Numbered from the stretch's first letter, positions 3,838-37,619 are shown. The stretch: DNA of 37,619 bases from Deltaproteobacteria bacterium (GCA_037379765.1 JARRJE010000043.1:865-38483), one strand, 5' to 3'. Notes: generated from the letters alone by a model not told the origin. Numbers and translations: made by a program.

Positions 3838-4004
3838 CCGGCAGACGGAGGCCGGCGCCCGGCCCCTCACAGGCCAGGGCGTCGGCCCATCACGCCCAAA
3901 GCCGGCCCGTGACCCCCTTCCCTCCCGACACCCCTTATTTGTCAGGGGTAAAGCAAAAAGGCTACCATGGAGAAGGCCAAGGGATCACGACCCTGGAGAC
4001 CCGA

Positions 4005-4691
4005 ATGACTCAGCAGATCATCACCGCAGCCAAGAATACGGCCTTCGAATTCCGGGATATCGTCACGATTCCGCGCTCGACCGGCCAGAAAGCCGAAACC
4101 CTCTCCGAGCTTCGGGACCTGATCGCCGAGGTGAGCGAGGACTGCATTTTCTATCACACTTACGGATACTTCGCCAAAGGCCATATCCTCGAATACACCA
4201 ACGATTTCGCGCAGTGGGCCGGCAAGGGCCTGGAAGAGGGAATGCTCGCCGAGCACCTGTCCATCATCGACGCCTTCGCCTTTGAATCCGTGGCCGATCT
4301 GCGGGCGGAGCTGCTCCGGGTGATCGATGCTTACACCGCCAACTTTCCCGAACCGCGGCCGGCCATGCCCGGCAATCAGTTCTATTTCAAAGAGGCGGTC
4401 ACTTACGTGTTTCCGGCCGGCTTCCGGGTCATGAATCTGGCCGAGCTCCTCATGGCGCTCAAATTCGTGGATATGAGCTCGATCTATTACCACTTCTATG
4501 AGGCGCGGGTGCGGCTCGGCGCCGGAGAAGACGATTTTTCCAAGTGGGTGGAGGAGGTAGTCGGCGGCCCTGAGATCGCCGCCCGGATCCGGGCCATCGA
4601 CATCTTCATGCACAACCTCGAGGGGATCAGAGAGCTGCTCATCCGGATCATTGAAGAGGAGCTCACCAAAATGATGGAGGTGCTCGGATGA
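4005..4691 (+). CDS. conserved hypothetical protein, translationally coupled to treT (resembles proteins I recall as DUF5752; unverified)
   Basis: This is the 3' part of ORF 3447..4691. The upstream 186 codons are R/G/P-rich low complexity and overlap the 3406..3837 gene, so the start is moved to ATG 4005 (GGAG 7 nt upstream). The stop overlaps the treT start as ATGA (4688-4691). Confidence 0.65.
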   Translation: MTQQIITAAKNTAFEFRDIVTIPRSTGQKAETLSELRDLIAEVSEDCIFYHTYGYFAKGHILEYTNDFAQWAGKGLEEGMLAEHLSIIDAFAFESVADLRAELLRVIDAYTANFPEPRPAMPGNQFYFKEAVTYVFPAGFRVMNLAELLMALKFVDMSSIYYHFYEARVRLGAGEDDFSKWVEEVVGGPEIAARIRAIDIFMHNLEGIRELLIRIIEEELTKMMEVLG

Positions 4692-13873: not shown

Positions 13874-14227
13874 ATGGAACTGGAGCAGGTTATCCGCCAA
13901 ATCTATCGTGTTCCTGTGAAGAAGAGTGACCGCGTGAACATTACGGTCGACGGGAGCGAATACGAGATCGTGAATCTGGGCAGTCACGGAATCGGCATTC
14001 GCCTGCCGAACCCTGCACCATTCAAGGTCAGCGACCACGTCCATGAGATCGGCTTGGAAATCGAGGGGGATCATATACGCCTCTCTGGAAAAATTGTTCA
14101 TGTCACTCCATATGAGACCGATCATTGTTTATGTGGAATCCAACTCATAGACATGGATGAAAAAAGTCAGCAGCGATTGCTTGATTACGTGTACCGGATT
14201 CGTGCCAACTTGTTTACAAAAGGCTGA
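13874..14227 (+). CDS. PilZ-domain protein (putative c-di-GMP receptor, variant motif)
   Basis: 117 aa single-domain protein. It has N-terminal RQIYR (RxxxR) followed about 22 aa later by NLGSHG (a variant of (D/N)x(S/A)xxG with G at the S position). GC is noticeably lower than in the flanking genes. Confidence 0.6.
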   Translation: MELEQVIRQIYRVPVKKSDRVNITVDGSEYEIVNLGSHGIGIRLPNPAPFKVSDHVHEIGLEIEGDHIRLSGKIVHVTPYETDHCLCGIQLIDMDEKSQQRLLDYVYRIRANLFTKG

Positions 14228-14294
14228 AAAAAATTTATATACAGAAAACTGTTTATTCAGCTAACCAACGCTAGGTTGTCCCGAGGACCGGATC

Positions 14295-14753
14295 ATGCCC
14301 AAAAAGGTGGACATTCTTGGAGATGTGCTCACCAATTCTGATGAGAGAACTATCCCAGGCTTGATGGAGCTGAGCGATCTTATAACTCCGGAAAAAACTG
14401 CCCAGCCCAAAAGACCGACTCAGCCGGAAAGCCCCTTCCAACTGGAGAGCCCCGCCCAGCAAAAAAAGCCTGCTCAGTTGGGGACTTGCCTTAAAGTTCA
14501 AAGCTCGAAAGGGAAAGCCCTAAGGAAAAAGAAGGTTTCTCTTTATCTTTCGCCGGAAATTGCCGAAAGCATTGACCGGATTCTGCCCCGAATCCGGAAT
14601 CTCGCTCCTGAAAAAGCGCGAAAGAGGGTTTCGAAATCCAGCCTGGTGAATTTTTCCCTGCAGCTACTGTTGCGGGAGTACGAAGAGAAAGGAAAGGAGA
14701 GCCTGCTCGTCAGGCAGTTCCTACATGACGACCGAGACGGCAATGATTCCTGA
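14295..14753 (+). CDS. hypothetical protein: P/Q/K-rich disordered N-terminal half + ribbon-helix-helix-like C-terminal half (possible ParG/ParB-like partner)
   Basis: 152 aa. SD GAGGA lies 7 nt upstream. The N-terminus is low-complexity (QPKRPTQPESPFQLESPAQQKKPAQL). The C-terminus KKKVSLYLSPEIAESIDRIL...SKSSLVNFSLQLLLREYEEKG has a strand-helix-helix pattern by eye. Confidence 0.5.
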   Translation: MPKKVDILGDVLTNSDERTIPGLMELSDLITPEKTAQPKRPTQPESPFQLESPAQQKKPAQLGTCLKVQSSKGKALRKKKVSLYLSPEIAESIDRILPRIRNLAPEKARKRVSKSSLVNFSLQLLLREYEEKGKESLLVRQFLHDDRDGNDS

Positions 14754-14826
14754 TTTCGTGCAAATTGCTGCTCTCCGGCGGCCCCATCCTGCCATTTTAT
14801 CGTGAACCAGGGAGGCTTCGCGCCAC

Positions 14827-15741
14827 ATGCTTCTGATCTGCCCGCACTGCAATAAACAGTACAACATCGACGAGAAGAAGATCCCGCCGAATGTCAAGAT
14901 GGCCCGGTGTAAATTCTGCGAACAGCAATTCTCCCTTAAGGAGGCGACGCAGAGCGACGAGGCGCCAATCCAGCCTTCGCAACCGGTGCGCAGGATCGGC
15001 GTCTGCATCAGCAAGGGGGGCGTCGGCAAAACCACCACCTCGGTCAACCTGGCCGCCGGCTTGGCTTTTTCCGGCTATAAAGTATTGCTGGTGGATACCG
15101 ATACTCAGGGTCAGGACAGCTTCGTCCTGGGGGTCAAGCCGAAGGGCGGCCTCACCGAGTTCATCGCCGGAGAATTGTCGGCGGAGGAAGCGATCATAAA
15201 GGCCAGGGAACGGCTCTGGCTCCTGGCGGGCGGAAAATCTCTGGCCGGCCTCAAGCGGCTCATCGACCGCAAGGACTTCGGGGGGGAGCTTACCCTGTCG
15301 GAGGCCCTGAAGCCGATCGAAGAGCAGTACGATTATGTTATCGTCGATACCTCACCGGGTTGGGATCCCCTTACCGTCAATGTCCTCTTTTACGTCAATG
15401 AGATCCTCACCCCGGTCTCGCTCGAGATCATGACTTTGCAAGGCCTGGTGGAATTCTTGAAAAGCCTGTCGGCCATCCAGAAACATCGCCAGGAGGTGGC
15501 CCTCAAGTACATCCTCCCGACTTTCCACGACCAGCGGGTCAAGAAGTGCGTCGGCATTCTGGAGAAAATCGAAAAGCTATACGGGCATTTGCTTTGCAAG
15601 CCGATCCGCTATAACGTCAGGCTCTCAGAGGCTCCCTCCTCGGGGCAGACGATCTATGAATTCGCCCCTGGTTCACCTGGTGCCGATGATTACCGGGATC
15701 TGGTGCGGAAGATCGCCAAGAATGAAAATCTTCTGCGATAG
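14827..15741 (+). CDS. ParA/MinD-family ATPase with N-terminal MJ0042-type zinc ribbon
   Basis: 304 aa. The N-terminus CPHCNKQY...ARCKFCEQQF has two CxxC pairs. A deviant Walker A, ISKGGVGKTTTSVNLA, follows, then LLVDTDTQG and YDYVIVDTSPG. Confidence 0.85.
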   Translation: MLLICPHCNKQYNIDEKKIPPNVKMARCKFCEQQFSLKEATQSDEAPIQPSQPVRRIGVCISKGGVGKTTTSVNLAAGLAFSGYKVLLVDTDTQGQDSFVLGVKPKGGLTEFIAGELSAEEAIIKARERLWLLAGGKSLAGLKRLIDRKDFGGELTLSEALKPIEEQYDYVIVDTSPGWDPLTVNVLFYVNEILTPVSLEIMTLQGLVEFLKSLSAIQKHRQEVALKYILPTFHDQRVKKCVGILEKIEKLYGHLLCKPIRYNVRLSEAPSSGQTIYEFAPGSPGADDYRDLVRKIAKNENLLR

Positions 15742-15853
15742 GTGAGCGGTACCGAGGCTCACGCCATCCTCTTCTCCGCATCAGGCTCTATAAGACCCCG
15801 CCTGAAAGAGAGCTTGAACATCAGTCGGTTTCTATTTATGAGAAGAAAGAGCC

Positions 15854-18349
15854 ATGCCGAAAATCACCTCCGCTCAATCGAGCATGATCGTCGAAACCCT
15901 CCGGGGAATCGTGGATCGAATCACCTATCACAATCCTGAAAACGGCTGGTCCGTGCTGCGGGTGCTTCCCTTCGACCGCCCTGGGGCCCAGGAGACGGTC
16001 ATCGTCCACCAGATCAAGGTCTTTGCCGGTGCCACCATGGAGTTTCGCGGCGCCTGGACGGTGCATCCCAGATACGGCCGCCAATTCAAAGCCACGGACG
16101 CGGTCGAGCGCAAACCGGCGACCGCCGCAGCCCTTGAAAAGTACCTGGGGTCCGGCCTGATCAAGGGGGTGGGTCCCAAGACCGCCCGTAAAATCGTTCG
16201 CCATTTCGGGGACAACACCCTGGCGGTGTTCGAAGAGCACATCGAGGAACTCACCGAAGTGCCGGGGATCGCCGTCAGGAAACTGGCCACCATCAGAGAG
16301 GCCTGGCAGGAGCACAGGGCGATCCGCGAGGTGATGATGTTCCTCCAGTCCCACGGCATCAGCACTCTGTTCGCGGTCCGCATTTACAAGCAGTACGGGG
16401 ATGAGGCCATTCGTTTGGTCAACGAAGATCCTTACCGCTTGGCCCAGGATATTTACGGCATCGGTTTCTTCTCCGCAGACCGCATCGCCTTGAGTATCGG
16501 CTTGGCGACGAACAGCCCCCAGCGGATCGTGGCGGGCATCCGACACGTGCTTGCGGCAAGTCGGGAATCGGGCCATTGCTATCTCACCCAAACGCAGATC
16601 GAAACTGAGGTGCAGGAGCTGCTGGGGCTCGATCTTGCGGCACAAATCCCTTCTCTGCTCACCCGCATGGAGAAAGAGGGATTGCTGCGGGTGCGGCTGC
16701 TGCCATCGGCGTCAGGCGCTTTCGAGACGTGCTACTATTCGAAATCGCTTTATTATGACGAATTGGCAGTGGCCGAGCGGATCAAGGCCATGGGGGCGGC
16801 GGCACCCGAGGTGGACCATGGGCGAATCGCCGCCTGGATCGCCCGCACCTGCCGGTCGAAAAACATTGCTCTGAGCGAGGAGCAGGCGGCGGCTGTAGCA
16901 GGGATTGCCGGCTGCCGGTTTGCCGTTCTCACCGGCGGCCCCGGTTGCGGCAAGACCACGACGACTTTGATTCTGGTGCGTCTGTTCGAGGCCATGGATC
17001 TCGAAGTGTTGCTCGCCGCGCCTACCGGCCGCGCCGCCCAGCGGATGAGCGAGGTGATCGGTAGGGAGGCGAAAACCATCCATCGGCTGTTGGAATGGCA
17101 GGGTGGCACCTTCAACAAAAATGAGGCATCTCCTCTCAAGACCGACGTCCTCATCGTTGACGAGTGCTCCATGCTCGACATCAGTCTTACCGCCGCTCTT
17201 CTCAAGGCGGTGCCTGAGGAAGTCCGACTGCTTTTCATCGGCGATGCCGACCAGCTGCCGTCCGTGGGTGCGGGTGACGTACTCCGGGACTTGATCGCTG
17301 CCAAGACGGTGAACTGCTACCGGCTGACTAAGATATTCCGCCAGGCCGAAGAATCGCTCATCATCCGCTACGCGCACCAAATCAACAGCGGCGATCTGCC
17401 GCCCGTCGAGTCGCCTTTCAAGAAGCCGGAGTTATGGCGAAATAAGGCGGATTGCCTTTTTCTCGATGCCGAAGAGGCCACCCGGGAACAGCTTCAGTTC
17501 ATCGCCAGGGCCAAACGACACTTTGACCTCAAGGCCGCCCGCCTGGAAAATGAAAATGCCGAAAGTCCTTATGCTTTCCGCACTGGGGAGACCCTGGTAC
17601 CCTATGAGTCGGAATTCTCCATCCCCAAAAAATTTCAGCACGTCGATCTTGAACGGCTGCTTGCCTCCCGCACGGGCACCGAGGAACTGCGCGCCGTCCT
17701 CAAAAAAGTGCACCCCTGGTCGGCTCTCCATTACGGCCTGGCCGCCGCCGACGTCATCCGCAATCTCTATCTGAAATGGATTCCGCGCTACTTCGGTGCC
17801 GACTGCGAGATCCAGGTGCTTTCCCCCATGACTCGGGGCAGCCTGGGCACGGCGAGTCTCAACCGGCTTTTACAGGAAAGCGCCAATCCGATGGGTGCCG
17901 GCAAGGGCCAGCTCACCGTGGGCGAACGGATCTTCCGGGAAGGAGATAGGGTGATTCACCGCCGGAACAATTACGAGCTCGGGGTGTTCAACGGCGACAT
18001 CGGCATCATCAAGGCCATCGATGCCGAGGAGCTGATCTGCACCGTCGCCTTCTTCCCCTACCGGCGGGAGGTCGCCTACCGCAAGGAGGATATCGTGGAG
18101 CTGGATCTCGCTTACGCCATTACTATCCACAAGTCTCAGGGCAGCGAATTCGAGGCGGTGATCATCCCGGTCCTGAGCCAGCATTTCAAGATGCTCTTCC
18201 GCAATCTGATCTATACCGGTCTCACCCGGGCCCGCAAACTCGCGGTTTTCGTCGGCACCCGCAAGGCTCTGGCCATGGCGGTCAAAAACCGGGACACCGC
18301 CCAGCGGCAGACGGCACTCAGACAGTTGCTTCGGGGTGAAGTGGTATGA
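15854..18349 (+). CDS. recD2: RecD2-type SF1B ATP-dependent DNA helicase
   Basis: 831 aa. The N-terminus is typical of RecD2 (GIVDRITYHNPENGWSVLRV..., HhH region GSGLIKGVGPKTARKIV). Walker A is LTGGPGCGKTT, followed by LLAAPTGRAAQRM, LIVDECSMLD, FIGDADQLPSVGAG, and C-terminal AITIHKSQGSEF and YTGLTRA. Confidence 0.9.
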   Translation: MPKITSAQSSMIVETLRGIVDRITYHNPENGWSVLRVLPFDRPGAQETVIVHQIKVFAGATMEFRGAWTVHPRYGRQFKATDAVERKPATAAALEKYLGSGLIKGVGPKTARKIVRHFGDNTLAVFEEHIEELTEVPGIAVRKLATIREAWQEHRAIREVMMFLQSHGISTLFAVRIYKQYGDEAIRLVNEDPYRLAQDIYGIGFFSADRIALSIGLATNSPQRIVAGIRHVLAASRESGHCYLTQTQIETEVQELLGLDLAAQIPSLLTRMEKEGLLRVRLLPSASGAFETCYYSKSLYYDELAVAERIKAMGAAAPEVDHGRIAAWIARTCRSKNIALSEEQAAAVAGIAGCRFAVLTGGPGCGKTTTTLILVRLFEAMDLEVLLAAPTGRAAQRMSEVIGREAKTIHRLLEWQGGTFNKNEASPLKTDVLIVDECSMLDISLTAALLKAVPEEVRLLFIGDADQLPSVGAGDVLRDLIAAKTVNCYRLTKIFRQAEESLIIRYAHQINSGDLPPVESPFKKPELWRNKADCLFLDAEEATREQLQFIARAKRHFDLKAARLENENAESPYAFRTGETLVPYESEFSIPKKFQHVDLERLLASRTGTEELRAVLKKVHPWSALHYGLAAADVIRNLYLKWIPRYFGADCEIQVLSPMTRGSLGTASLNRLLQESANPMGAGKGQLTVGERIFREGDRVIHRRNNYELGVFNGDIGIIKAIDAEELICTVAFFPYRREVAYRKEDIVELDLAYAITIHKSQGSEFEAVIIPVLSQHFKMLFRNLIYTGLTRARKLAVFVGTRKALAMAVKNRDTAQRQTALRQLLRGEVV

Positions 18350-26316: not shown

Positions 26317-28107
26317 TCACTCGGCGGTCACCAACGTTTTGCTCATCATCTGCTTCACCGTCTGCCGAATGGTGGCCAGTGCTTCGGGATCACCCTTGTA
26401 CAGGGCGGACATGTAGCCCTTGGCCTGCTCGAAGGTGATGTGGGGCGGCAGCGGCGGCACTTCCGGATCGCAGTGGGCGCAGATGATCGTGGGCCGATCC
26501 GCTTTAAGCGCCTTTTCGTAGGCGGGCCGGATCTGCTTGGGCTTGTCCACGTCGATGCCGTTCAGATCGAGCAGCTCGGCGTAATCGGCAAAGGAGAAAT
26601 CTGGGATCTCCTGGGAGGCCTCGAACTTGGGATCGCCGGCCATGACCCGCTGCTCCCAGGTCACCTGGTTGAGGTCGAGGTTGCGGAGCACGAGCACGAT
26701 CAGCCGCGGATCCCGCCACCGCCGCCAATACTTGGCGATGGTAATCAGAGCGTTGTTGCCGAGCATCTGCATGGCACCGTCGCCCACTGCGGCGATCACC
26801 ATCCGGTCAGGGTGGGCGAACTTGGCGGCCAGGGCGTAAGGGACACCGGGGCACATGGTGGCCAGCTGCCCGGAAAGAGAGGCCATCATCCCCCGCCGGA
26901 TCCTGATGTCCCGGGCGAACCAGTTGGCTGCCGAGCCGGAGTCACTGGTGATGATGCAATTGTCGGGCAGAAACGGCGAAAGGTCCCAGAATAGCCGCTG
27001 GGGATTGATGGGATTGGCCTTGAGCATGGCCCGCGCCTCCATGATCTCCCACCACTCGACGACCCCTTTTTCGATCTCTTCCTGCCAATCCCGCTCCCGT
27101 TTACTGACAAGCAGCGGGATAAGGGCGCGCAGGGTGAGCCGGGCGTCTCCCTGCAGATGGACCTCCATGGGAAAGCGCAGCCCCAGCATCCGGGGGCTGA
27201 TGTCGATCTGAACTCCCCGGGCCTGCCCTTCCTTGGGCAGAAACTCCGAATAGGGGAAGCCGCTGCCGATCATGAGGAAGGTGTCGCAGTTTTTCATCAG
27301 GTCCCAGCTCGGCTTGGTGCCGAGCAGGCCGATGGGGCCGCAGTTGTAAGGCAGATCGTCGGGCAGTGCCGCTTTACCAAGCAAGGCCTTGGCTACTCCT
27401 GCCCCAAGCAGCTCGGCCACCTCCATCACTTCGTCGGTAGCATTAAGCGCCCCGGCGCCGATCAGGATGGCCACCCGTTTGCCGGCATTGAGCACCTCGG
27501 CGGCGTGGTGCAGATCTTTTTTCTTGGGGATGATGTCGGGCTCGGAGTAGCCGACACTGGTGAAGGCGGTGCCGTGGATGCGGGGCGGCGACTCCACCGC
27601 ATCCATCTCCTGGACGTTGGCGGGGATGATGATGCAGGTCACCGTGCGCTCCGCCTTGGCGATGCGCATGGCCCGGTCCACCAGATGGCGGATCTGCTTC
27701 GGATCCGAGGCCATGTGCACGAAGTGATGCGCCACATCCTTGAACAGCGAGATAAGGTCCACCTCCTGCTGGTAATCGGTTCCCATGGCGGAGGTCAGGG
27801 TCTGGCCGACGATGGCCACCACCGGCTGGTGGTCTCCTTTAGCGTCGTACAATCCATTCAGCAGGTGGATCGCTCCGGGTCCGGACGTAGCCATACATAC
27901 GCCGACTTCTCCGGAGAACTTGGCGTGGGCGCAAGCCTCGAAGGCGGCCAGCTCCTCATGCCGGGCCTGGATGAAATCGATGTTGCCGTGGGCACGGTTC
28001 AGCGCCCCCATGATGCCGTTGATGCCGTCTCCGGGATAGCCGTAAACGCGCCGAACACCCCAGTCATAGAGTCGTTGCACCAGAAAATCGCTTGCAGTCG
28101 GGCTCAT
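26317..28107 (-). CDS. PoxB-family thiamine-pyrophosphate enzyme (pyruvate oxidase / pyruvate:quinone oxidoreductase-like)
   Basis: ORF 26317..28149. The start is set at ATG 28107 (MSPTASDFLVQRLYDWGV). Motifs: YGYPGDGINGI, RHEELAAFEA, ATSGPGAIHLLNGLYDA, TPP motif GDGAMQMLGNN, and a C-terminal PPHITFEQAKGY resembling the E. coli PoxB C-terminal region. Confidence 0.8.
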   Translation of the reverse strand: MSPTASDFLVQRLYDWGVRRVYGYPGDGINGIMGALNRAHGNIDFIQARHEELAAFEACAHAKFSGEVGVCMATSGPGAIHLLNGLYDAKGDHQPVVAIVGQTLTSAMGTDYQQEVDLISLFKDVAHHFVHMASDPKQIRHLVDRAMRIAKAERTVTCIIIPANVQEMDAVESPPRIHGTAFTSVGYSEPDIIPKKKDLHHAAEVLNAGKRVAILIGAGALNATDEVMEVAELLGAGVAKALLGKAALPDDLPYNCGPIGLLGTKPSWDLMKNCDTFLMIGSGFPYSEFLPKEGQARGVQIDISPRMLGLRFPMEVHLQGDARLTLRALIPLLVSKRERDWQEEIEKGVVEWWEIMEARAMLKANPINPQRLFWDLSPFLPDNCIITSDSGSAANWFARDIRIRRGMMASLSGQLATMCPGVPYALAAKFAHPDRMVIAAVGDGAMQMLGNNALITIAKYWRRWRDPRLIVLVLRNLDLNQVTWEQRVMAGDPKFEASQEIPDFSFADYAELLDLNGIDVDKPKQIRPAYEKALKADRPTIICAHCDPEVPPLPPHITFEQAKGYMSALYKGDPEALATIRQTVKQMMSKTLVTAE

Positions 28108-28353
28108 GATCGTACCCCCTACGGGTTGGATTGACGAAAAAAATGACAACCGCCCCGACCGGGTCGGGATTCGTTATTCAGGGGAAGACGTTTTGCTGGA
28201 CAAGGCCGCGAGATCGCTCGGGCCTGAAAGGTTGAAGTCTTCGTGAGGAAGAGCAGATCCTACACTCCATTCTAGGCCGACCAAAAGGATCAAGTCAATT
28301 TCGGCTGCCGAGGGCAACACGACGCACTGGCGAAGAGGAGACTCGACAGAAAT

Positions 28354-28383
28354 TTGACGTGCAGCCGAACGAGATGATAGGAT
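28354..28383 (+). promoter_or_regulatory. candidate sigma70-type promoter of the N-ATPase operon
   Basis: TTGACG (28354-28359)-N18-TAGGAT (28378-28383), about 80 nt upstream of the atpD ATG, in a lower-GC 350-nt divergent intergenic region. Weak by-eye match. Confidence 0.25.
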
Positions 28384-28424
28384 TTTAAAAAAATAGAGCG
28401 AAATTTCAAATAGTTCCACACTAG

Positions 28425-29861
<1,437 letters not shown>

Positions 29862-29871
29862 TACGCTTTTT

Positions 29872-29952
29872 CACCACAGAGAACACAGAGAGAGAAAGAG
29901 AGCCTTATTCAACATATTATCTCTGTGACTTCTGTGCTCTCGTGGTCAATTC
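29872..29952. repeat. CACAGAG-type hairpin repeat, family B, copy 2
   Basis: CACCACAGAGAACACAGAGAGAGAAAGAG ... CTCTGTGACTTCTGTGCTCTCGTGGTCAATTC. It has the same three-unit architecture as 18367-18462 and is flipped relative to it (the GAATTGACC end). It lies between atpD and atpC. Confidence 0.8.
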
Positions 29953-29970
29953 CGGATCTGCGAGTTTATC

Positions 29971-30363
29971 ATGATGCACCTGAAAATCCTCTTGCCCACC
30001 GAGGTGCTGCTCGATCGGGACGTTTCGAAGGTCTTGGCCGAGGGGACCAACGGCTCGTTCTGCCTCTTGCCCCGGCACCAGGATTTCGTCACCGCCCTGG
30101 TGCCGGGGCTGCTCTCCTTTGTGGCCGACGCGCGGGAGGAGTTCGTAGCCGTGGACGAGGGGGTGCTGATTAAAATCGGAAATGAGGTCCTGGCCTCCAC
30201 CCGACGTGCGGTCCGCGGCCCGGACTTGGGTATGCTGCGGCAGACCGTGGAAAGGGAGTTCCTGGAGCTCGATGAGCGGCAGCGGCTCACCCGCTCGGCC
30301 ATGGCCCGACTCGGGGCCGATTTCGCCCGCAGATTATACGAGTTGGGGAAAGAGCATGAATAA
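29971..30363 (+). CDS. atpC: F-type ATPase epsilon subunit
   Basis: 130 aa. MMHLKILLPTEVLLDRDVSKVLAEGTNGSFCLLPRHQDFVTALVPGLLSF is typical of the epsilon N-terminal beta-sandwich. Its position after atpD matches N-ATPase operons. Confidence 0.85.
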   Translation: MMHLKILLPTEVLLDRDVSKVLAEGTNGSFCLLPRHQDFVTALVPGLLSFVADAREEFVAVDEGVLIKIGNEVLASTRRAVRGPDLGMLRQTVEREFLELDERQRLTRSAMARLGADFARRLYELGKEHE

Positions 30364-30470
30364 AAACGTCCACAGGCACTGCATGTACTTCGTCATCGGC
30401 CTGTTCGCGGAACACGAGTCCGGCTCGCAGGCCTCTTCCTCATATCTGGAGCACCTGTGAACGTTTTTAT
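30360..30470 (+). other. about 110-nt inverted-repeat-bounded structured spacer between atpC and atpQ (also contains a 34-codon ORF)
   Basis: ATAAAAACGTCCACAGG (30360-30376) pairs with CCTGTGAACGTTTTTAT (30454-30470) at 16/17 positions. Nested GGCCTG/CAGGCC and CGAG/CTCG stems lie inside. Confidence 0.5.
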
Positions 30471-30514
30471 AAAAAAGCTGACGGAAAGTCGACGGCCATC
30501 GCGAGAGGTTAAGC

Positions 30515-30820
30515 ATGAACGATCCCCGTGATCGCCGAAAAGCCAACGGCGAGAAATTCGGCCGCGAGATCCGGAAGAAGGAGGAGCGGAAGATCAAGGG
30601 CCGACAGGAGAAAGACAAAAGCGTCTGGTTCGGCTTGGGAATGTTCGGCCTTATCGGTTGGGCGGTTGCCATTCCCACTCTCATCGGCATCGCCATCGGA
30701 TTATGGCTCGATGCGAAATTCAAGAGCCACATTTCCTGGACCCTCACCTTTCTCATCATCGGGGTGGTGCTGGGCTGCCTCAATGCCTGGCACTGGCTCA
30801 ACAAGGAGGGTCGGGAGTGA
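30515..30820 (+). CDS. atpQ: N-ATPase accessory membrane protein AtpQ (AtpI/AtpZ-like)
   Basis: 101 aa. It has a basic N-terminus followed by two TM helices (WFGLGMFGLIGWAVAIPTLIGIAIGLWL and WTLTFLIIGVVLGCLNAW). Its position after atpC is as in described N-ATPase operons. Confidence 0.8.
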   Translation: MNDPRDRRKANGEKFGREIRKKEERKIKGRQEKDKSVWFGLGMFGLIGWAVAIPTLIGIAIGLWLDAKFKSHISWTLTFLIIGVVLGCLNAWHWLNKEGRE

Positions 30821-32034
30821 CTACGCTGGTGCCGCTGGAAATCTTCCTGACCGGAATCGTGGTAGTCCTGGCCATCTTGATCAAGTATGGCCTGACCCGT
30901 TTAAAGCTGCCCTCCCTGGTCGGCTTTCTCCTCCTCGGTTTCTGCCTGCGGGTGATCGGTGAAGCAGCTGGTTTTCTCTCCGAGCCCCTCCTTGACTTGT
31001 TCGAGTTCCTCGGCAGCATTGGCTTGTTCATCCTGCTTTTCCGGGTGGGGCTGCAGAGCAACCTGGCGGCCCTGCTCCGTCAGCTCCGGGAGGCATCCGC
31101 CATCTGGATCGGCGATATTCTGGTCAGCGGCACGTTTGGCTTTGCCGTCGCCCGCTTCTGGCTGGGGCTCGAATTGATCCCCTGCCTGTTCGTGGCCGCA
31201 GCCCTCACCGCCACCAGCGTCGGCGTATCGGTCGCGGTCTGGCAGGAGATGCAGGCCTTGGCTTCTGCCAATGGCTCCATCCTGATCGACGTCGCCGAGT
31301 TGGATGACATTTCGGGCATCTTTCTGCTGTCCCTGCTGCTGACCCTGGCGCCGACTCTGCACGAAGGTGCCGCAGCCAGGTCTCTCGAAGTCCTCCTTGG
31401 CGGTGCCGCCGGAATCCTCATTGTCAAGGCCCTGGCCTTCGGGCTTCTGTGTGTGCTTTTCTCCCGTTACGCCGAGGAGTCGGTGACCACCTTCTTCCGC
31501 AGGATCAAGCCCGCTCCGGACCCCATGCTGCTCGTCACCGGCACCGGCTTCATCATCGCCGCCCTGGCCGCCTGGTTGGGACTTTCGGTAGCGGTGGGCG
31601 CGCTGTTCGCCGGTCTGGTCTTCAGCCGCGATCCCCGGGCGGTCCATGAAGAGGCCTCATTCGGCGCGCTGTACGATTTATTCACCCCCTTTTTCTTCAT
31701 CGATATCGGCCTGAAGATCCCTCCGGAGTCCTTGACGGCCGCGGTGGGCATCGGCGGAGCGCTTCTTTTGGCGGCCACGGCGGGCAAATTTCTCGGGGCG
31801 GGCACTCCCACTTTGGTTTTAAGCGGCTGGGATAGTGCGGCCCTGATCGGCACGAGCATGATCCCCCGGGCCGAAATCGCCATGGTCATCATTCAGCAGG
31901 GTCGGGAGCTGGGGAACTGGGCGGTCCCCCCTCCCGTCTTCTCCGGCATGGTCCTGGTCTCAGCCGTTACCTGTATCCTGGCGCCGTTCATGCTCCGGCT
32001 ACTGCTTGCCAAATGGCCCCAGTACCCCGCTTGA
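30817..32034 (+). CDS. CPA2-type cation:proton antiporter (Na_H_Exchanger fold, no RCK/KTN tail), paralog 1
   Basis: This is the in-frame 3' part of ORF 30658..32034. A GTG start at 30817 overlaps the atpQ stop (GTGA), with AAGGAGGG 6 nt upstream. The protein is about 405 aa and polytopic. Kef/NapA-like segments: LPSLVGFLLLGF, EFLGSIGLFILLFRVGLQ, AAALTATSVGVS, VAELDDISGIFLL, GALFAGLVFS, FTPFFFIDIGL, MIPRAEIAMVI. Confidence 0.85.
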   Translation: MTTLVPLEIFLTGIVVVLAILIKYGLTRLKLPSLVGFLLLGFCLRVIGEAAGFLSEPLLDLFEFLGSIGLFILLFRVGLQSNLAALLRQLREASAIWIGDILVSGTFGFAVARFWLGLELIPCLFVAAALTATSVGVSVAVWQEMQALASANGSILIDVAELDDISGIFLLSLLLTLAPTLHEGAAARSLEVLLGGAAGILIVKALAFGLLCVLFSRYAEESVTTFFRRIKPAPDPMLLVTGTGFIIAALAAWLGLSVAVGALFAGLVFSRDPRAVHEEASFGALYDLFTPFFFIDIGLKIPPESLTAAVGIGGALLLAATAGKFLGAGTPTLVLSGWDSAALIGTSMIPRAEIAMVIIQQGRELGNWAVPPPVFSGMVLVSAVTCILAPFMLRLLLAKWPQYPA

Positions 32035-32053
32035 GGGAGAAGGGAAACGTATC

Positions 32054-33347
32054 GTGGATACCGTGATTCCCCTGGAGGTGACCCTGGCCGGCATCGCCAT
32101 CGTGCTGGCCCTGCTGCTGAAGCATGCGTTCATCCGGCTCAGGATCCCTTCCCTGATAGGCTTCATGGCATTGGGTCTTCTGATCCGGATCGGGGGAATG
32201 GAAGCGAAGGTTCTGTCCGAGCCGGTACTCGGGATCTTCGAGTTCCTGGGCAATATCGGCCTGATCGTCCTTCTCTTCCAGGTGGGGCTGCACAGCAACC
32301 TGGCCGGACTCCGGAAACAACTGAGGCACGCCAGCTTCATCTGGCTGGGCAACGTCCTTTTTTCAGGCGGACTCGGCTATGTGGCCGCCGGGTTTGATCC
32401 CCAGCCTGTTCCTGGCCACCGCCCTCACCGCCACCAGCGTGGGAGTCTCCATCGCCGCCTGGCAGGAGGCCCGGTCCTTGGACTCGGTCAATGGCTATCT
32501 CTTGATCGATGTGGCGGAAATGGACGACATCTCGAGCATCCTGCTGCTCTCCCTGCTCCTGGCTGTGCTGCCGGTGCTCAAAGGGGCCGAGAAGCTGCCT
32601 CTGTCTCTGGTGGCCGCTGAAACTACGGTGCTGCTTCTGGTGAAAATAGGCCTGTTCGGGGCATTTTGTCTGCTTTTTTCCCGCTATGCCGAAGAGCGGC
32701 TGATGAGCTTTTTCAGCCGGATGCGCCCGGCTCCCGACCCCATGCTGCTGGTGGCCGGCACTGGCCTGGTCATCGCCGGCGCGGCCGGTTGGCTCGGGTT
32801 TTCAGTGGCAGTGGGCGCGCTTTTCGCCGGGCTGGTCTTCAGCCGGGATCCCCGCTCCATCCGGGATGAAACAGCCTACGGGGCCCTGTTCGAGTTCTTC
32901 ACCCCCTTTTTCTTCATCGACATCGGCCTCAGGGTCGATCATGCCTCCATCAGCTCCGCCGCCCAATTGGGTCTTGTCTTGCTTCTTGTCGCCATCATTG
33001 GGAAAATAATAGGGACCGGTCTGCCGACCTTGCTGGTGAGCGGTTGGACGAGCAGCGTGCTCGTTAGTCTGAGCATGATCCCCCGGGCCGAGATCGCCAT
33101 GGTGGTCATGCAGCAGGGGCACAAGCTCGGGAGCTGGGCGGTGCCGCCCCATGTTTTTTCAGCCATGGTGCTGGTATCCGCTGCCTCCTGCCTGCTCACC
33201 CCGCTTGCGCTCCGCCCCTTGCTCAGCCTCTGGCCCCAGATCTCTGGTGGACGGTGCGCAGGCTGCCCATCACGCCCCGTCCCGTGCTCTGGACCGTTGG
33301 CAGCTATTATCTGCGCCTGGCGGCACTCGGCCTGGGATTCTATGTAG
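32054..33347 (+). pseudogene. CPA2-type cation:proton antiporter, paralog 2, with a frameshift/short deletion near 32385-32395
   Basis: Two ORFs in different frames: 32006..32620 and 32379..33347. Together they are collinear with paralog 1. The proposed GTG start at 32054 aligns with the paralog 1 N-terminus. At the break, paralog 1 reads SGTFGFAVARFWLGLELIPCLF, whereas here SGGLGYVAAG switches frame to GLIPSLF. About 5 codons are missing and the missing length is 3n+2 nt. The C-terminus runs about 35 codons past the point where paralog 1 stops, into atpR. Confidence 0.75.
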
Positions 33348-33475
33348 CAGGCGCCGGCAGCTTTCCCCGGTTGGCCGCGACCTTTGCGGGCTTTCTTCTG
33401 GCCCGCCTGCTCATCCTCCGGTCGATGAAACCTCCGACGGAGGATGAGCCCGAACTTGCAAAGGAGAACCGGTAG
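33254..33475 (+). CDS. atpR: N-ATPase accessory membrane protein AtpR, apparently lacking its first TM helix
   Basis: 73 aa from GTG 33254. VLWTVGSYYLRLAALGLGFYVA and LAATFAGFLLARLLILR match the Arg-containing TM helices I recall for AtpR. The in-frame upstream codons read DLWWTVRR (the conserved end of TM1) but are preceded by non-hydrophobic sequence. The stop abuts the atpB ATG (TAGATG). Confidence 0.65.
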   Translation: MRRLPITPRPVLWTVGSYYLRLAALGLGFYVAGAGSFPRLAATFAGFLLARLLILRSMKPPTEDEPELAKENR

Positions 33476-34183
33476 ATGGAAATCACTCCGGACGCTTTCA
33501 TCTTCTGGCAGCACGGCATCTTCAAGCTCAACGCCACCATTGTGGTCACCTGGGCCATCATGGCCTTGCTGGTGATTGCCTCCTGGCTGGTGACCAGAAA
33601 GCTTTCGCCCGCCGCCGAGATGTCCCGCTGGCAGAACCTGCTGGAGACCGTCGTCGAGTTGCTCCGCAGGGAGATTCGGGAGGCGAGCCAGCAGGAAGCC
33701 GAGCAGTACCTGCCGCTCATTGGCACACTGTTTCTCTTTATCGTCACCGCCAATATCCTTACCATCTTCCCGGGCTACTGGCCCCCCACGGGATCGCTAT
33801 CCACCACCGCCGCCCTGGCCCTTTGCGTGCTGGTGGCGGTGCCGGTTTACGGCATCGCCAGCCAGGGGCTGGTCGGCTATCTCACCCAATACGTCCGGCC
33901 CACCCCGATCATGCTGCCTTTCAACATCATCGGCGAGTTCTCCCGGACCCTCGCCCTGGCCGTCCGCCTCTTCGGCAACATCATGAGCGGCACCATGATC
34001 ATCGCAGTGCTCCTGGCGGTTACCCCTTTCTTCTTCCCGGTAATCATGCACGTCCTGGGACTGCTCACCGGTGTGATCCAAGCTTACATCTTCGCCATTC
34101 TGGCCATCGTCTACATCGCGTCCGCCACCCGGACGCATCAAATCGCAGAAGAAAAGAACAAGGAGGAACAAGCGCATGGATAA
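33476..34183 (+). CDS. atpB: F-type ATPase a subunit
   Basis: 235 aa. It contains the essential-Arg helix LALAVRLFGNIMSG and the C-terminal helices VIQAYIFAILAIVYI. Confidence 0.9.
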   Translation: MEITPDAFIFWQHGIFKLNATIVVTWAIMALLVIASWLVTRKLSPAAEMSRWQNLLETVVELLRREIREASQQEAEQYLPLIGTLFLFIVTANILTIFPGYWPPTGSLSTTAALALCVLVAVPVYGIASQGLVGYLTQYVRPTPIMLPFNIIGEFSRTLALAVRLFGNIMSGTMIIAVLLAVTPFFFPVIMHVLGLLTGVIQAYIFAILAIVYIASATRTHQIAEEKNKEEQAHG

Positions 34184-34454
34184 CCTGACCTGGATTGCCG
34201 TCGCCTCGATCATCTCCGCCGGTATCTGCATGGGGATAGGCGCCGTGGGCCCGGCCTTGGGCGAAGGCCGGGCCGCGGCCCAGGCCCTGAGCTCCATCGC
34301 TCAGCAGCCGGACATGACCACCACCATCACCCGCACCCTGTTCGTGAGCCTGGCCATGATTGAGTCCACGGCCATCTATGCTCTGGTGGTAGCGATGATC
34401 GTTCTCTTCGCCAATCCCTTCTGGAGTTATATGGTGAGCCGGGTCGGGGGATGA
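34176..34454 (+). CDS. atpE: F-type ATPase c subunit with a two-carboxylate Na+-type ion-site signature
   Basis: 92 aa hairpin. Helix 1 reads GIGAVGPALGEGRAA and helix 2 reads LAMIESTAIYALVVAMIVLF. It overlaps the atpB end by 8 nt. Confidence 0.9.
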   Translation: MDNLTWIAVASIISAGICMGIGAVGPALGEGRAAAQALSSIAQQPDMTTTITRTLFVSLAMIESTAIYALVVAMIVLFANPFWSYMVSRVGG

Positions 34455-34492
34455 ACGGAAGCCTCCACCAGCACCGCATCTGCTTTATCATC

Positions 34493-34533
34493 GGTCTGTC
34501 CGCATAGCGGGCTATAGCGGACAGGCCTCTTTC
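34493..34533 (+). terminator. GC-rich hairpin plus pyrimidine/T-rich tail downstream of atpE (possible partial terminator/attenuator)
   Basis: GGTCTGTCCGC (34493-34503) pairs with GCGGACAGGCC (34517-34527), 11 bp including one G-U. The tail that follows is TCTTTC. This hairpin is nested inside an outer stem, CGGAAGC (34456-62) / GCTTCCG (34557-63). Confidence 0.35.
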
Positions 34534-34644
34534 GCGCATCTGCAGCACTGGTGAAAGCTTCCGGAATTGTTGGAAACAAATAGAGAATTCAATGCACTCG
34601 ATCACAGGGGGAACATCTTTAAATCCAAATTACTCCCAACCTAT

Positions 34645-34675
34645 AAGCCTTCAGATGTGCTGCATCTGAAGGCTT
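34645..34675 (+). promoter_or_regulatory. perfect 13-bp hairpin abutting the atpF Shine-Dalgarno
   Basis: AAGCCTTCAGATG-tgctg-CATCTGAAGGCTT, followed immediately by CAGGAGAG (SD) and the ATG at 34689. Confidence 0.5.
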
Positions 34676-34688
34676 CAGGAGAGTATCG

Positions 34689-35534
34689 ATGCTGATTGAC
34701 TGGTTCACGGTGGCGGCTCAGATCGTCAACTTTCTCATCCTCATTTTCTTGCTCAAGCATTTCCTCTACGGGCCGATCATCCGGGCCATGGACCGGCGGC
34801 AGGAAATGGTGGTCTCCCGCCTGCAGGAGGCAGACGAGAAGTGGCAGGAGGCAGAGGGAGAAAAGGAACGGCTGGCTGCCCAACAGCGGGAGCTCAAACA
34901 CCAGCGTGAAGAGCTCTTGGCCGAGGCCCGGCAGGAGGCGGAGGAGCTGCGCAAACAGTTGACCACTCAGGCCCGGGAAGAAGTGGCCCGATTGCAGGAG
35001 CGCTGGCAGGCGTCCCTGCAAAGCGAACAGGAATCTTTTCTGAAAGAGCTGCAGCGCCGGGCCGGCCTCCAGGTTTACGCTGTGGCCGGCAAGGCCCTGG
35101 CCGAGCTGGCCGACGCAGATCTCGAGCAGAGGATGGTGGATTCCGCGCTCGGCCGTCTGGAAAAGCTGGAAGGAGAACCCCGGGACCGATTGCAGGAATC
35201 GGCCCGGAACGCGACCGCCCTGGTCGTGCGGAGCGCCTTCGCCATTCCGGACAAAGACCGCCAGCGACTCACCAAAAGGTTGCACGAAGTCCTGGTGGCC
35301 AAGCCCGAGGTGCGTTACGAAACCGCGCCCGAGTTGCTGTGCGGCATCGAAATCGATGCCCACGGCTGCATGATAGGGTGGAACCTGGGGGAATACCTGC
35401 GCGAGCTGGAGGAGGACTTGGGCCGGGCGCTTGAAGTGGGATCTCGCACGGTGAGACTAAAAGGAACGGAGAATGAAAAATGGAGAATGAAAAGAAGGGT
35501 CCTCCATTCTTTAATCATAATTCTTCATTCTTAA
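34689..35534 (+). CDS. atpF: F-type ATPase b subunit with delta-like C-terminal extension (b/delta fusion typical of N-ATPases)
   Basis: 281 aa. An N-terminal TM helix ([18 protein letters not shown]) is followed by a long charged coiled coil. The C-terminal part, ...[34 protein letters not shown], resembles the delta/OSCP C-terminus. No separate atpH is present. The last ~20 codons lie in an AT-rich insert and may not be native. Confidence 0.8.
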
Positions 35535-35540
35535 TTCCAC
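35455..35540. repeat. AT-rich quasi-palindromic insert at the atpF/atpA junction
   Basis: Tandem GGAGAATGAAAA at 35468-35479 and 35482-35493. These are opposed by CCTCCATTCTTT / TTCTTCATTCTTAATTCC. GC drops sharply relative to the surroundings. The insert supplies both the atpF stop (35532-34) and the atpA ATG (35480). Confidence 0.6.
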
Positions 35541-36921
35541 TTCTCGACAACGCCTTCGATCTCTTCGACCGCACCCTGGAAGCCCATGAAATGCGGCTCC
35601 ATCTGCGGGAGGTGGGGATGGTCTTCAATCTGGATCCGGATGAGATCGGGGTGATCATGCTCGATGCAAGCGACGAGGTGGGGGCAGGCGCAAAGGTTTC
35701 CCGCACTGGCCGGGTGATGGACGTGCCGGTAGGAGAAGCGCTTCTCGGGCGGGTGGTGGATGCCACCGGCCGGCCGCTCGACGAACAAGGGCCGATGCGG
35801 GCCAGAGAGCGGCGGCCCATTGAGCGGGAGGCCGCAGGGATCATGGACCGCGACCCGGTCACCGTGCCCCTGCAGACCGGGCTCAAGGTGACGGATGCCC
35901 TCATCCCCATCGGCCGGGGCCAGCGAGAGCTCATCCTGGGCGACCGCCAGACTGGGAAAACCGCCATTGCTCTCGACACCATCATCAACCAGCGGGACAA
36001 GAACGTGCTCTGCGTGTACTGCGCCATTGGCCAGCGCAGCTCGGCGGTTTCCAAGCTCATTGCCGACCTGGGCGAGCGGGGCGCCATGGGCTACACCATC
36101 GTGGTGAACGCGGCCGGCGAGGAACCGCCGGGCATGAAGTTCATCGCCCCGTATGCTGCCACCACCATGGCCGAATACTTCATGGAGCAGGGGCGCGACG
36201 TGCTCATCGTCTATGACGACCTCACCCATCATGCCCGGGCCTACAGGGAGCTGTCGCTTCTCCTCCGCCGGCCGCCCGGCCGGGAGGCCTTTCCGGGAGA
36301 CATCTTCTACATTCATTCCCGGCTGCTCGAGCGCTCGACCCCGGCGGCTCGCTTTCGGCGCTCCCCATCGTGGAGACCGAGGCCCAGAACGTCTCTGCCT
36401 ACATCCCTACCAACCTGATCTCCATCACCGACGGCCAGATCTATCTCTCCCCGAATCTCTTCCAGAAGGGGCTGCTGCCGGCTGTGGACGTGGGCAGGTC
36501 GGTTTCCCGGGTGGGCGGCAAGACCCAGCTCCCCTCTTACCGGATGGTGGCCGGCGACCTTCGATTGTCTTACTCTCAGTTCGAGGAGCTGGAGAAATTC
36601 GCCCGGTTTTCCACCCGCCTGGACGAGGCGACCAAGAAGACCCTGGAGCGGGGCAGGCGGGTGCGGGAGGTGCTCAAGCAGGAACAATATGCCCCTCTCC
36701 CGGCGCATCAGCAGATCGCGGTGCTGCTGGCAGTAAACAACGGCCTGTTCGACGATCTTCCCATCGAAAAAATAGGGGCGGCCCAGCAGGCCATTTACCG
36801 GATGGTGGGAGAGGAGCTTGCCGAGCTCGGCCGCAAGATCGAAGAAGGCCAGAAGCTCACTGATGGAGACCGGGAGCGGCTGCTGGCTGCCGCCCGCCGA
36901 GCGACTGAGCCTTTTAGTTGA
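35480..36921 (+). pseudogene. atpA: F-type ATPase alpha subunit with an in-frame N-terminal-domain gap of about 31 aa and a frameshift/short deletion near 36335-36342
   Basis: Two ORFs in different frames: 35480..36418 and 36370..36921. Walker A is [18 protein letters not shown], followed by LIVYDDLT and [27 protein letters not shown]. The frame then switches to (A)[38 protein letters not shown]. The distance from REVG to the Walker A is about 31 aa shorter than in E. coli alpha, so the beta-barrel strands between REVG and MVFNLD are missing. Confidence 0.8.
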
Positions 36922-37029
36922 AACCGTTCAAATGGTTGAAATTGTTTGAATTAGTGGCACTTGTTGAACCGATCAAACAAACCAAACCAGTCAAACAAAT
37001 AAAACGAGTCCAACCAATCCAACCAGCCC
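36922..37029. repeat. low-GC strand-asymmetric spacer (GTTGAA/GTTTGAA units followed by TCAAAC/CCAACC units) between atpA and atpG
   Basis: GGTTGAAATTGTTTGA (36934-49) is imperfectly complementary to TCAAACAAACCAAACC (36973-88), 12/16 by eye. CCAACC-type units repeat up to the atpG ATG. Confidence 0.5.
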
Positions 37030-37619
37030 ATGCAAACCCTTGAATCCCTCGAAAGAAGCATTCGGAGCGCCGAGGATCTTTACGCCATCGTGCGCACCAT
37101 GAAGACCATCGCTGCGGTCAACATCCGCCACTACGAAAAAGCGGTGGAGTCTGTGGCCGAGTATTTCCGGGCCGTGGAACTGGGATTGCAAGCGGTCCTC
37201 CGGGGTCGATCCGCCGCTTTTATGCGCCGGGCAGCGGGCACGCCGCCCGGCGGCCTGGGAGCGGTGGTCTTTGGCAGCGATCAGGGCCTCGCCGGCGGCT
37301 TCAACGACCAGATCGTCTCCCTGGCCATGGACCAAATGGAGCGGCGCGAACCGGAGGCCGGCAGGCGGGCGGTGCTTTGCGTGGGCGGCCGGGCGGCCGC
37401 CCTGCTCGGTGGCCGCGGCCAGCCCAGCGAAGAGGTCATTTCGGTGCCGCCGACCTTGGGCGGGGTCACCTCGGCGGTGGAGCAGCTTGTCCTTGCCATT
37501 TCCGCTTGGCAGGAGAAAAGGCTGGTCGGCCGCGTGATGCTTTTTCACAACCGGCCGGTTTCATCGGCCGCCTACGAGCCGCGTCAGACCTTGCTTCTGC
37601 CCCTTGATCCCGAGTGGCT
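37030..37619 (+). CDS. atpG: F-type ATPase gamma subunit, 3' end beyond the window
   Basis: Absent from the ORF track because there is no stop in the window. Hand translation from ATG 37030: MQTLESLERSIRSAEDLYAIVRTMKTIAAVNIRHYEKAVESVAEYFRAVELGL...AVVFGSDQGLAGGFNDQIV... These are typical gamma motifs (TMK..AA, SD.GL.GGFN). Confidence 0.85.
   Translation, partial: MQTLESLERSIRSAEDLYAIVRTMKTIAAVNIRHYEKAVESVAEYFRAVELGLQAVLRGRSAAFMRRAAGTPPGGLGAVVFGSDQGLAGGFNDQIVSLAMDQMERREPEAGRRAVLCVGGRAAALLGGRGQPSEEVISVPPTLGGVTSAVEQLVLAISAWQEKRLVGRVMLFHNRPVSSAAYEPRQTLLLPLDPEW

Follow-up and report, generated by a model that had tools for sequence, protein, structure and literature searches.

A 37,619-nucleotide (nt) stretch of DNA from a Deltaproteobacteria bacterium (GCA_037379765.1 JARRJE010000043.1:865-38483; the whole stretch is called the window here, and positions are counted from its first letter) carries on its plus strand, at 28461-37619, an operon that profile searches identify as encoding an N-ATPase, with two genes for CPA2-type cation:proton antiporters lying between atpQ and atpR. 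The gene order, atpD-atpC-atpQ-[CPA2]-[CPA2]-atpR-atpB-atpE-atpF-atpA-atpG with the beta and epsilon genes first, is the N-type order save for the CPA2 insert (Table 1). The same site is occupied by one antiporter gene in many other genomes, a recurrence that lends support to a functional module of pump and exchanger.

The operon and its antiporters

All eight NCBIfam models for N-ATPase proteins (the 'alternate F1F0 ATPase' models for the beta, epsilon, a, c, b and alpha subunits, together with TIGR02230 and TIGR03165) score above their curated cut-offs. The scores for b, alpha and AtpR were taken on the intact forms in L088, one of six independent assemblies of the same organism (L001, L002 and L088-L091) that match the window exactly or almost so, apart from the damage to its copy described below. 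The top matches of beta, alpha, a and c are alt_F1F0 models, which places the core subunits in the N-type rather than the F-type. Pfam models match beta, epsilon, AtpQ (PF09527), AtpR (PF12966), a, c, and a b subunit in which PF00430 and PF00213 fall on one protein, the latter as an OSCP-like tail (E = 3.7e-6). The tell-tale gene atpR is present, as a remnant in the window (PF12966, E = 1.7e-10) and intact in L088 (TIGR03165, 60.5 against a cut-off of 55.5). We saw no separate delta gene (atpH); a scan with hidden Markov models (HMMs) for nine N-ATPase subunits and for CPA2, a set without a delta model, labelled only those genes. In the c subunit, a helix-1 glutamate (ALGEG) and an ESTxxY motif (MIESTAIY) can be read, and by these residues its ligands are of the Na+ type. 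The AtpD of the window is nearest to those of operons in Desulfobacterota metagenome-assembled genomes (MAGs), at 76-79% identity.

A first, sequence-only reading of the window had recognised an N-ATPase operon from the missing atpH, the delta-like tail of b and the accessory proteins AtpQ and AtpR, and had called the c subunit Na+-type; the Pfam and NCBIfam scores bear out the former, and the helix-1 glutamate and ESTxxY motif the latter. With the N-ATPase operon as described, atpDCQRBEFAG (PMC2881411), the window shares the order, the lack of atpH, the delta-like b tail, AtpQ and AtpR, and a c subunit with two carboxylates and ESTxxY; it differs in carrying two NapA-type antiporter genes between atpQ and atpR, where the single-copy form of the layout has one.

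Table 1. Positions of the operon genes and structured repeats in the window, with the matches on which each assignment is based
Feature	Position	Strand	Evidence
atpD, N-type beta subunit, 466 amino acids (aa), intact	28461..29861	+	TIGR03305 alt_F1F0_F1_bet 812 bits, cut-off 752; Pfam ATP-synt_ab
atpC, epsilon subunit, 130 aa	29971..30363	+	TIGR03166 139.8, cut-off 100.1; PF02823
Structured repeat copy A, ~110 nt, atpC|atpQ spacer	30356..30465	+	68% identity to copy B over 106 nt; fold z -4.9
atpQ, accessory membrane protein, 101 aa	30515..30820	+	PF09527 E = 7e-16; TIGR02230 139, cut-off 46.7
Antiporter paralog 1, NapA-type CPA2, 405 aa, intact, GTG start	30817..32034	+	PF00999 E = 1e-42; NapA alignment; AlphaFold2/Foldseek
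Antiporter paralog 2, disrupted; intact form 407 aa	32054..33241	+	Split open reading frames (ORFs); PF00999; deletions mapped against L001 and L088
atpR remnant, start codon lost; intact form 100 aa	33242..33475	+	PF12966 partial match
atpB, a subunit, 235 aa	33476..34183	+	TIGR03306 345.7, cut-off 302.1
atpE, c subunit, 92 aa, Na+-type ligands by motif	34176..34454	+	TIGR03322 144.7, cut-off 130.85
Structured repeat copy B, start of the 234-nt atpE|atpF spacer	34451..34560	+	Fold z -4.9; conserved in L092 5025-5144
atpF, b-delta fusion, 1-nt deletion; intact form 262 aa	34689..35534	+	PF00430 and OSCP tail; L088 form TIGR03321 253, cut-off 224.7
atpA, N-type alpha subunit, disrupted; intact form 518 aa	35480..36921	+	Split ORFs; HMM coverage gaps; L088 form TIGR03324 825.6, cut-off 750.5
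atpG, gamma subunit, continues past the window end	37030..37619	+	Custom gamma HMM, positions 1-195 of 295

Five reference loci, with gamma genes annotated by Pfam/RefSeq, supplied the sequences for the gamma HMM, and the start of atpG was mapped from the L088 gene at 15194-16087.

The antiporter genes are tightly joined to their neighbours. The sequence AAGGAGGG at 30803-30810 lies seven bases 5' of the paralog 1 GTG, which at 30817 overlaps the atpQ TGA (GTGA, 30817-30820); the paralog 1 stop ends at 32034, and 19 nt separate it from the paralog 2 GTG at 32054; and the atpR TAG (33473-33475) abuts the atpB ATG at 33476. These three junctions match what had been described as operonic from the sequence directly. 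The further statement that paralog 2 runs into atpR describes a by-product of an 84-nt deletion that took the paralog 2 stop and the atpR start; in the intact versions, AtpR is complete, with an ATGA overlap. Within the operon, internal promoters and terminators do not exceed chance (10 terminator-like sites against 8.6 expected). No known regulatory RNA, such as an ion riboswitch, was matched by Rfam in the window at the gathering threshold, nor in 28100-28500 at E <= 1.

Both antiporter ORFs match PF00999 (Na_H_Exchanger) and no other Pfam model, and a KTN/RCK domain is found in neither, in agreement with the exchanger fold and missing RCK tail reported at the outset; the peptides quoted then as shared do occur in the two of them. 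An identical paralog 1 protein is encoded in the six other assemblies and recorded at NCBI as MEJ2032050.1, from a 'Deltaproteobacteria bacterium' MAG. Paralog 1 can be aligned over its full length with NapA of Thermus thermophilus (4BWZ, 5BZ2, 5BZ3; E = 2.8e-22), and the A-T-S motif of transmembrane helix 4 (TM4), D163-D164, K324 and R351 align with the NapA ion-site residues. All of these are invariant in a 25-member alignment of the clade, and both paralogs carry the ion-site residues. In NapA numbering, the DD pair and the lysine are D156/D157 and K305. An AlphaFold2 model of paralog 1 (predicted local distance difference test, pLDDT, 86; predicted template modelling score, pTM, 0.86) finds its best Foldseek match in the PDB in NapA (5BZ2; TM-score 0.79/0.83), followed by KefC (0.75-0.78), and the modelled fold is the NhaA/NapA fold, a type with 13 TM helices that include crossed, unwound ones.

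With NapA, an electrogenic Na+/H+ exchanger of CPA2, paralog 1 shares a similar length, the lack of a cytoplasmic regulatory domain, the paired aspartates (DD), the TM10 lysine, the TM11 arginine and the TM4 ATS motif. The two are only ~25-27% identical, and the transport activity of paralog 1 is predicted from sequence. Unlike NapA, for which we know of no ATPase-operon setting, the clade antiporter is embedded in one. The E. coli proteins KefC and KefB (8BXG, 8BY2) share the CPA2 transmembrane fold, and databases call clade proteins 'KefB'; the two antiporters differ from these in lacking KTN/RCK at 405 and 407 aa, and in a DD site rather than the Gln/Asn-Asp type of some Kef-type proteins (PMC6181914). 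TIGR00932, the generic CPA2 model, reaches 96 bits against a cut-off of 238, and a YbaL model matches paralog 2 weakly, at 33 against 700. With the generic model so far below its cut-off, no curated family covers the antiporter clade.

According to Masrati et al. (2018), electrogenic CPA2 clades have Asp at position 6 and Lys at position 8 in the eight-position CPA motif, with no Glu at position 5, and K+-selective members have Ser-Ala-Thr at positions 2-4 (PMC6181914). Paralog 1 has Val at residue 159 and so lacks a Glu at motif position 5, and its positions 2-4 are Thr133-Ser134-Val135, as in NapA (VATSV) as read in the alignment, and not the K+-type motif. From the NapA-like residues, A-T-S-V in TM4 together with the paired aspartates and a lysine in TM10, we predict that the antiporters are electrogenic exchangers of Na+ (or Li+) for H+, moving more H+ than Na+.

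Recurrence of the antiporter between atpQ and atpR

Four hand-picked homologues, from Anabaena sp. ATCC 33047 and from MAGs of Ca. Loosdrechtia, Aminicenantes and Abyssubacteria, are all linked to N-ATPase genes, three of them with the antiporter exactly between atpQ and atpR. When contigs of a one-genome-per-species collection were scanned with the antiporter alignment, at least 402 relatives came up; the best 80 of them were annotated with custom HMMs. In 44 of these 80 the order is atpQ-antiporter-atpR, and some N-ATPase linkage is seen in 55, the remaining linked loci being atpQ-antiporter where the contig ends or the cluster is truncated (seven), antiporter-atpR at a contig start (one) and an antiporter beside atpD (three). 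The linked carriers belong to the Cyanobacteria, Brocadiales, Desulfobacterota, Bacteroidota, Ignavibacteria, Zixibacteria, Calditrichota, KSB1, Nitrospirota, and Alpha- and Gammaproteobacteria; with the Abyssubacteria, whose linkage comes from the hand-picked locus, they span ~12 phylum-level groups. The question first raised from the window, whether the antiporter-containing variant recurs, can be answered in the affirmative.

The estimated gaps on either side of the antiporter gene (atpQ|CPA2 and CPA2|atpR) have a median of ~1 nt. The c subunits carry ESTxxY in 53 of 54 linked operons; among N-ATPases in general, ProAD counts about half as H+-type (PMC11738941). Pairwise distances of the antiporter and AtpD are correlated (Mantel r = 0.83, p = 0.001, n = 47).

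The window had been thought to show an undescribed variant of the operon. An insertion in the N-ATPase operon was in fact recorded, and not analysed, by Dibrova, Galperin and Mulkidjanian in 2010 (PMC2881411). RefSeq annotates plasmid pREB4 of Acaryochloris marina with a 'cation:proton antiporter' flanked by genes for an 'AtpZ/AtpI family protein' (AtpQ) and for 'ATP synthase subunit I' (AtpR), which identifies that insertion as the same antiporter gene. The pREB4 Na+-ATPase operon of A. marina MBIC11017 (AM1_RS34055-34100) has the order atpD-atpC-atpQ-antiporter-atpR-atpB-E-F-A-G and an antiporter ~51% identical to paralog 1; unlike the operon in the window it is plasmid-borne and cyanobacterial, and it has one antiporter copy. 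A 2022 comparative study of A. marina does not mention the antiporter in its passages on the Na+-ATPase genes (PMC8949462). Later N-ATPase papers as a group (on Synechococcus 7002, Nitrospira, Futiania, Methylacidiphilum, Ferrigenium, A. marina strains and ProAD) give the canonical nine-gene order or, in the N-ATPase passages retrieved, make no mention of an antiporter. In the literature searched, which included few subscription journals, we found no study of the embedded antiporter's function and no comparative study of it. The single-copy layout is common, was glimpsed in 2010, and is uncharacterised in the literature that we found.

The position between atpQ and atpR is not the only one in which the linkage survives. 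In L005 (adjacent) and L036 (~4.5 kb away) the antiporter gene lies outside the operon, 5' of atpD on the same strand, and in L027 and L042 it is divergently oriented. Among the cyanobacteria, a clade of Pleurocapsales-like and Spirulina members has a split operon: L043, L053 and L077 have atpC-atpQ-antiporter with no atpR-B-E-F-A-G within 10 kb, and in L082 atpD lies 4.6 kb 5' of atpC. These split operons might relate to the 'two-gene insertion' noted in Cyanothece in 2010. A different insert is seen in the Abyssubacteria operon L006, where a baeRF-family (bacterial eRF1-like) gene at 13906-15078 separates atpA and atpG.

A distribution of this kind could also arise if the antiporter were a passenger, acquired in a single insertion by an operon that moves laterally and since transmitted with no functional link to the pump. 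N-ATPase operons are indeed transferred laterally as units (PMC2881411), and the antiporter is patchily distributed among them. A passenger would hardly be expected, though, to keep the same tight junctions and intact ion-site residues across ~12 phylum-level groups, to be under purifying selection, to pair almost only with Na+-type c subunits, and to be duplicated with both copies retained in two species; we regard this explanation as very improbable.

A candidate pump-and-exchanger module

On balance, we think it probable that the operon encodes a co-expressed pair, an ATP-driven Na+ pump and an electrogenic Na+/H+ exchanger, that serves homeostasis under salt and alkaline pH. The antiporter and pump genes would be co-transcribed and translationally coupled, and their products made together. 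By hydrolysing ATP, the N-ATPase would expel Na+, building a membrane potential and a Na+ gradient; the exchanger would spend the membrane potential in bringing H+ in and moving further Na+ out. The two could in this way form a joint ATP-powered module for Na+ extrusion and control of cytoplasmic pH, independent of the respiratory proton-motive force, which would suit saline or alkaline conditions and anaerobes. Where there are two paralogs, they would probably form separate dimers or a heterodimer, with diverged kinetics or pH set-points.

A hard-wired combination of pump and exchanger had been suggested from the window alone. Its existence as a functional module gains support from the conserved atpQ-CPA2-atpR arrangement (44 of 80), the ~1-nt junctions, the correlation with AtpD, the pairing with Na+-type c subunits and the purifying selection; the function itself we infer.

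Several points weigh against this reading. Twenty-five of the 80 best relatives have no atp gene in their flanks, indicating that the antiporter can work without the pump. To sample the pump, 80 N-type c-subunit loci were drawn from metagenomes, ranked by similarity to the c subunit of an operon with adjacent atpQ and atpR and therefore biased; atpQ and atpR are adjacent in 44, the order is odd in three, 32 are uninformative, and the antiporter lies between the two in one. Biased as it is, the sample (one in 48 informative operons) shows that the antiporter form is a minority, and the pump usually works without it. Single-gene neighbour-joining (NJ) trees of AtpD and of the a subunit mix antiporter-bearing operons with those that lack the gene, a pattern that would fit either one ancient insertion followed by many losses or several transfers, and that gives a single origin no particular support. 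The correlation between antiporter and AtpD could in part reflect shared species phylogeny. A pump and an antiporter that both export Na+ are partly redundant, so that a net benefit, the retrieval of H+, has to be argued. The selectivity among Na+, Li+ and K+ and the stoichiometry are predicted from motifs only, and paralog 1 has at residue 161 (window ~31297-31299), two residues before the DD pair, a glutamate that is invariant in the 25 clade members where NapA has Ile. In this clade, E161 might help to set the stoichiometry or selectivity.

The ionic role could differ from the one proposed. The exchanger might run as a reversed converter, taking Na+ in and H+ out to generate proton-motive force, or it might exchange K+ for H+ and balance K+ and pH during hyperpolarisation. 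The source name of the protein, 'Kef-type K+ transport system membrane component KefB', the second-ranking structural match to KefC (TM-score 0.75-0.78) and the weak YbaL K+ efflux match of paralog 2 all point this way; the specificity of CPA2 proteins is not easily predicted from their sequences (PMC6181914), and E161 could alter the chemistry of the site. These similarities are offset by a TM4 Thr-Ser-Val as in NapA rather than the K+-selective Ser-Ala-Thr, by the lack of a KTN/RCK regulatory domain, and by scores well short of the cut-offs (96 against 238 for TIGR00932, 33 against 700 for YbaL). A reversed electrogenic exchanger would, moreover, oppose the membrane potential built by the pump itself. 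We consider a different ionic role unlikely, and Na+ extrusion coupled to H+ uptake remains the function that we favour.

Co-expression need not be the whole of the relationship. The antiporter might dock physically on the membrane sector of the N-ATPase, possibly via AtpQ or AtpR, in a supercomplex with local ion channelling. Its fixed site between two accessory membrane proteins specific to N-ATPases in 44 genomes, junctions that overlap or are ~1 nt apart, and divergence correlated with that of AtpD would all fit such a partner. A subunit, on the other hand, is normally neither so dispensable nor so mobile: the gene is found 5' of atpD in L005 and L036 and divergently oriented in L027 and L042, 25 relatives stand alone, and most sampled N-ATPase operons lack it. 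Docking is in our view distinctly unlikely. Only a slim chance attaches also to a more far-reaching version, in which the antiporter would be an obligate partner of a sub-class of Na+-type N-ATPases, maybe docked via AtpQ/AtpR, so as to form a single ATP-driven Na+-out/H+-in machine, with the tandem paralogs as a heterodimer. If true, the operon would encode what could be called an 'ATP-powered antiporter system', which would hint at a physiological role for N-ATPases.

As to that role, N-ATPases may be Na+ or H+ pumps, and may serve tolerance of salt, acid or alkaline conditions. Transcript data for Synechococcus PCC 7002 did not fit a simple role in the salt response (PMC3468840). A conserved sub-class of the pump with a hard-wired NapA-type exchanger, almost solely Na+-type, provides a concrete hypothesis on the ion cycle that is served, and the single-copy form occurs in culturable strains, among them Acaryochloris marina MBIC11017, Anabaena sp. 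ATCC 33047 and Mastigocoleus testarum BC008. For annotation the consequence is a practical one: pipelines that require exactly two genes between epsilon and a, as ProAD does (PMC11738941), could misclassify the antiporter variant.

Duplication, missing stretches and surroundings

The pair of antiporter genes is seen only in the window organism, including its six other assemblies, and in a related species, L092, whose two paralogs are 83% and 86% identical in protein sequence to those of the window; none of the 80 genome loci and none of the 80 metagenome loci has two copies. In an NJ tree, paralogs 1 and 2 form one clade (100/100 bootstrap), sister to Brocadiales sequences. This result confirms that they are paralogs, as had been proposed, and rules out their independent acquisition. 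The tandem duplication is specific to this Desulfobacterota-like lineage, of which it is a small elaboration. Since the single copy of one relative (P0003/L093) clusters with paralog 2, paralog 2 may be the conservative copy and paralog 1 the diverged, faster-evolving one. Between the two species, paralog 1 has a ratio of nonsynonymous to synonymous substitution rates of 0.19 and paralog 2 one of 0.17 (0.07-0.26 for the flanking atp genes), low enough in both to indicate that both copies are under purifying selection.

In the window itself, several genes of the operon are damaged. The intact sequence comes from two Logan contigs from different sequencing runs (L001 and L002), reached by exact-protein look-up of paralog 1, and from four Joint Genome Institute (JGI) metagenome contigs, reached by exact look-up of intact paralog 2 (P0006), a form that is present in the two Logan contigs as well. 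Over 15.5 kb the window differs from L088 by six substitutions and by six missing stretches of 48, 17, 84, 1, 96 and 19 nt. The first of these, at 23479, falls in an unrelated FAD-oxidase/SDR fusion gene. The second, after 32389, shifts the frame of paralog 2, and the third, at ~33240, contained both the stop codon of paralog 2 and the initial 25 codons of atpR. Loss of the single nucleotide at 35436 alters the C-terminus of atpF; in atpA, 96 nt are missing in-frame after 35617 and 19 nt, with a frameshift, after 36341. The operon proteins in their intact forms are AtpQ (101 aa), paralog 1 (405), paralog 2 (407), AtpR (100), a (235), c (92), b-delta (262), alpha (518) and gamma (297).

Paralog 2 accordingly appears in the window as two ORFs in different frames, 32006-32620 and 32379-33347, which match PF00999 at profile positions 5-94 and 100-373. 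Of the two antiporter genes of about 400 aa first described here, paralog 1 stands as such, whereas the frame of paralog 2 is broken after 32389; the split ORFs and mapped deletions rule out an intact paralog 2 gene in the window. The window AtpR covers only positions 26-84 of the 86-position PF12966 profile because the 84-nt deletion removed its first 25 codons, and an exact-protein look-up of the window atpF returned no record on account of the deletion at 35436.

The deletions are most likely assembly artefacts, in that they extend beyond the operon, outweigh the substitutions, and are contradicted by six other assemblies that agree with one another. We find it unlikely that they are instead real and that the operon copy of this strain is decaying into pseudogenes. 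Decay would account for the hits to four operon genes (paralog 2, atpR, atpF and atpA) within 4 kb, and it has some support from NCBI, where paralog 1 is represented by a protein of a Deltaproteobacteria MAG (MEJ2032050.1) and the one 90% cluster of paralog 2 examined holds no NCBI entry, as would fit a pseudogene call in that MAG. It sits poorly with six deletions against only six base substitutions over 15.5 kb, with the absence of flanking microhomology at any of the six deletions, with the deletion at 23479 in an unrelated gene, and with the intact sequence shared by all six other assemblies, which are from different samples. The joins themselves are a separate matter. That the atpQ-antiporter or antiporter-atpR joins might be chimeric, a possibility raised with the initial description, is ruled out by the same joins in the six other assemblies, in the second species and in dozens of genomes, and the arrangement stands.

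Two copies of a structured repeat flank the block of genes for membrane proteins, atpQ-paralog 1-paralog 2-atpR-atpB-atpE. Copies A and B and the L092 copy fold alike (z = -4.9, -4.9 and -3.9, respectively), with 39 shared pairs, 10 of which show compensatory changes. Copy A can also be read as a 34-codon ORF; in copy B this ORF is broken in the window species. The repeat has no Rfam match and was seen only in this lineage. The atpE-atpF spacer that starts with copy B (34455-34688) is long, at 234 nt compared with ~2 to 75 nt in the other annotated loci.

TreT-like and PfkB genes lie near some of the operons. In Loosdrechtia (L004 14917-17078), genes for a TreT-like GT1 glycosyltransferase and a PfkB kinase directly follow the antiporter-bearing operon on its 3' side, and in Abyssubacteria (L006) a PfkB kinase gene (15996-16958) comes after atpG, with a TreT-like gene (1627-2856) ~4 kb 5' on the opposite strand. 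At 3447-5908 in the window, ~23 kb upstream of the operon, lie a TreT_GT1 gene and, along with it, DUF5752 and amylase/GH57 genes. The TreT and PfkB neighbours may represent a neighbourhood of compatible-solute and salt-stress genes.

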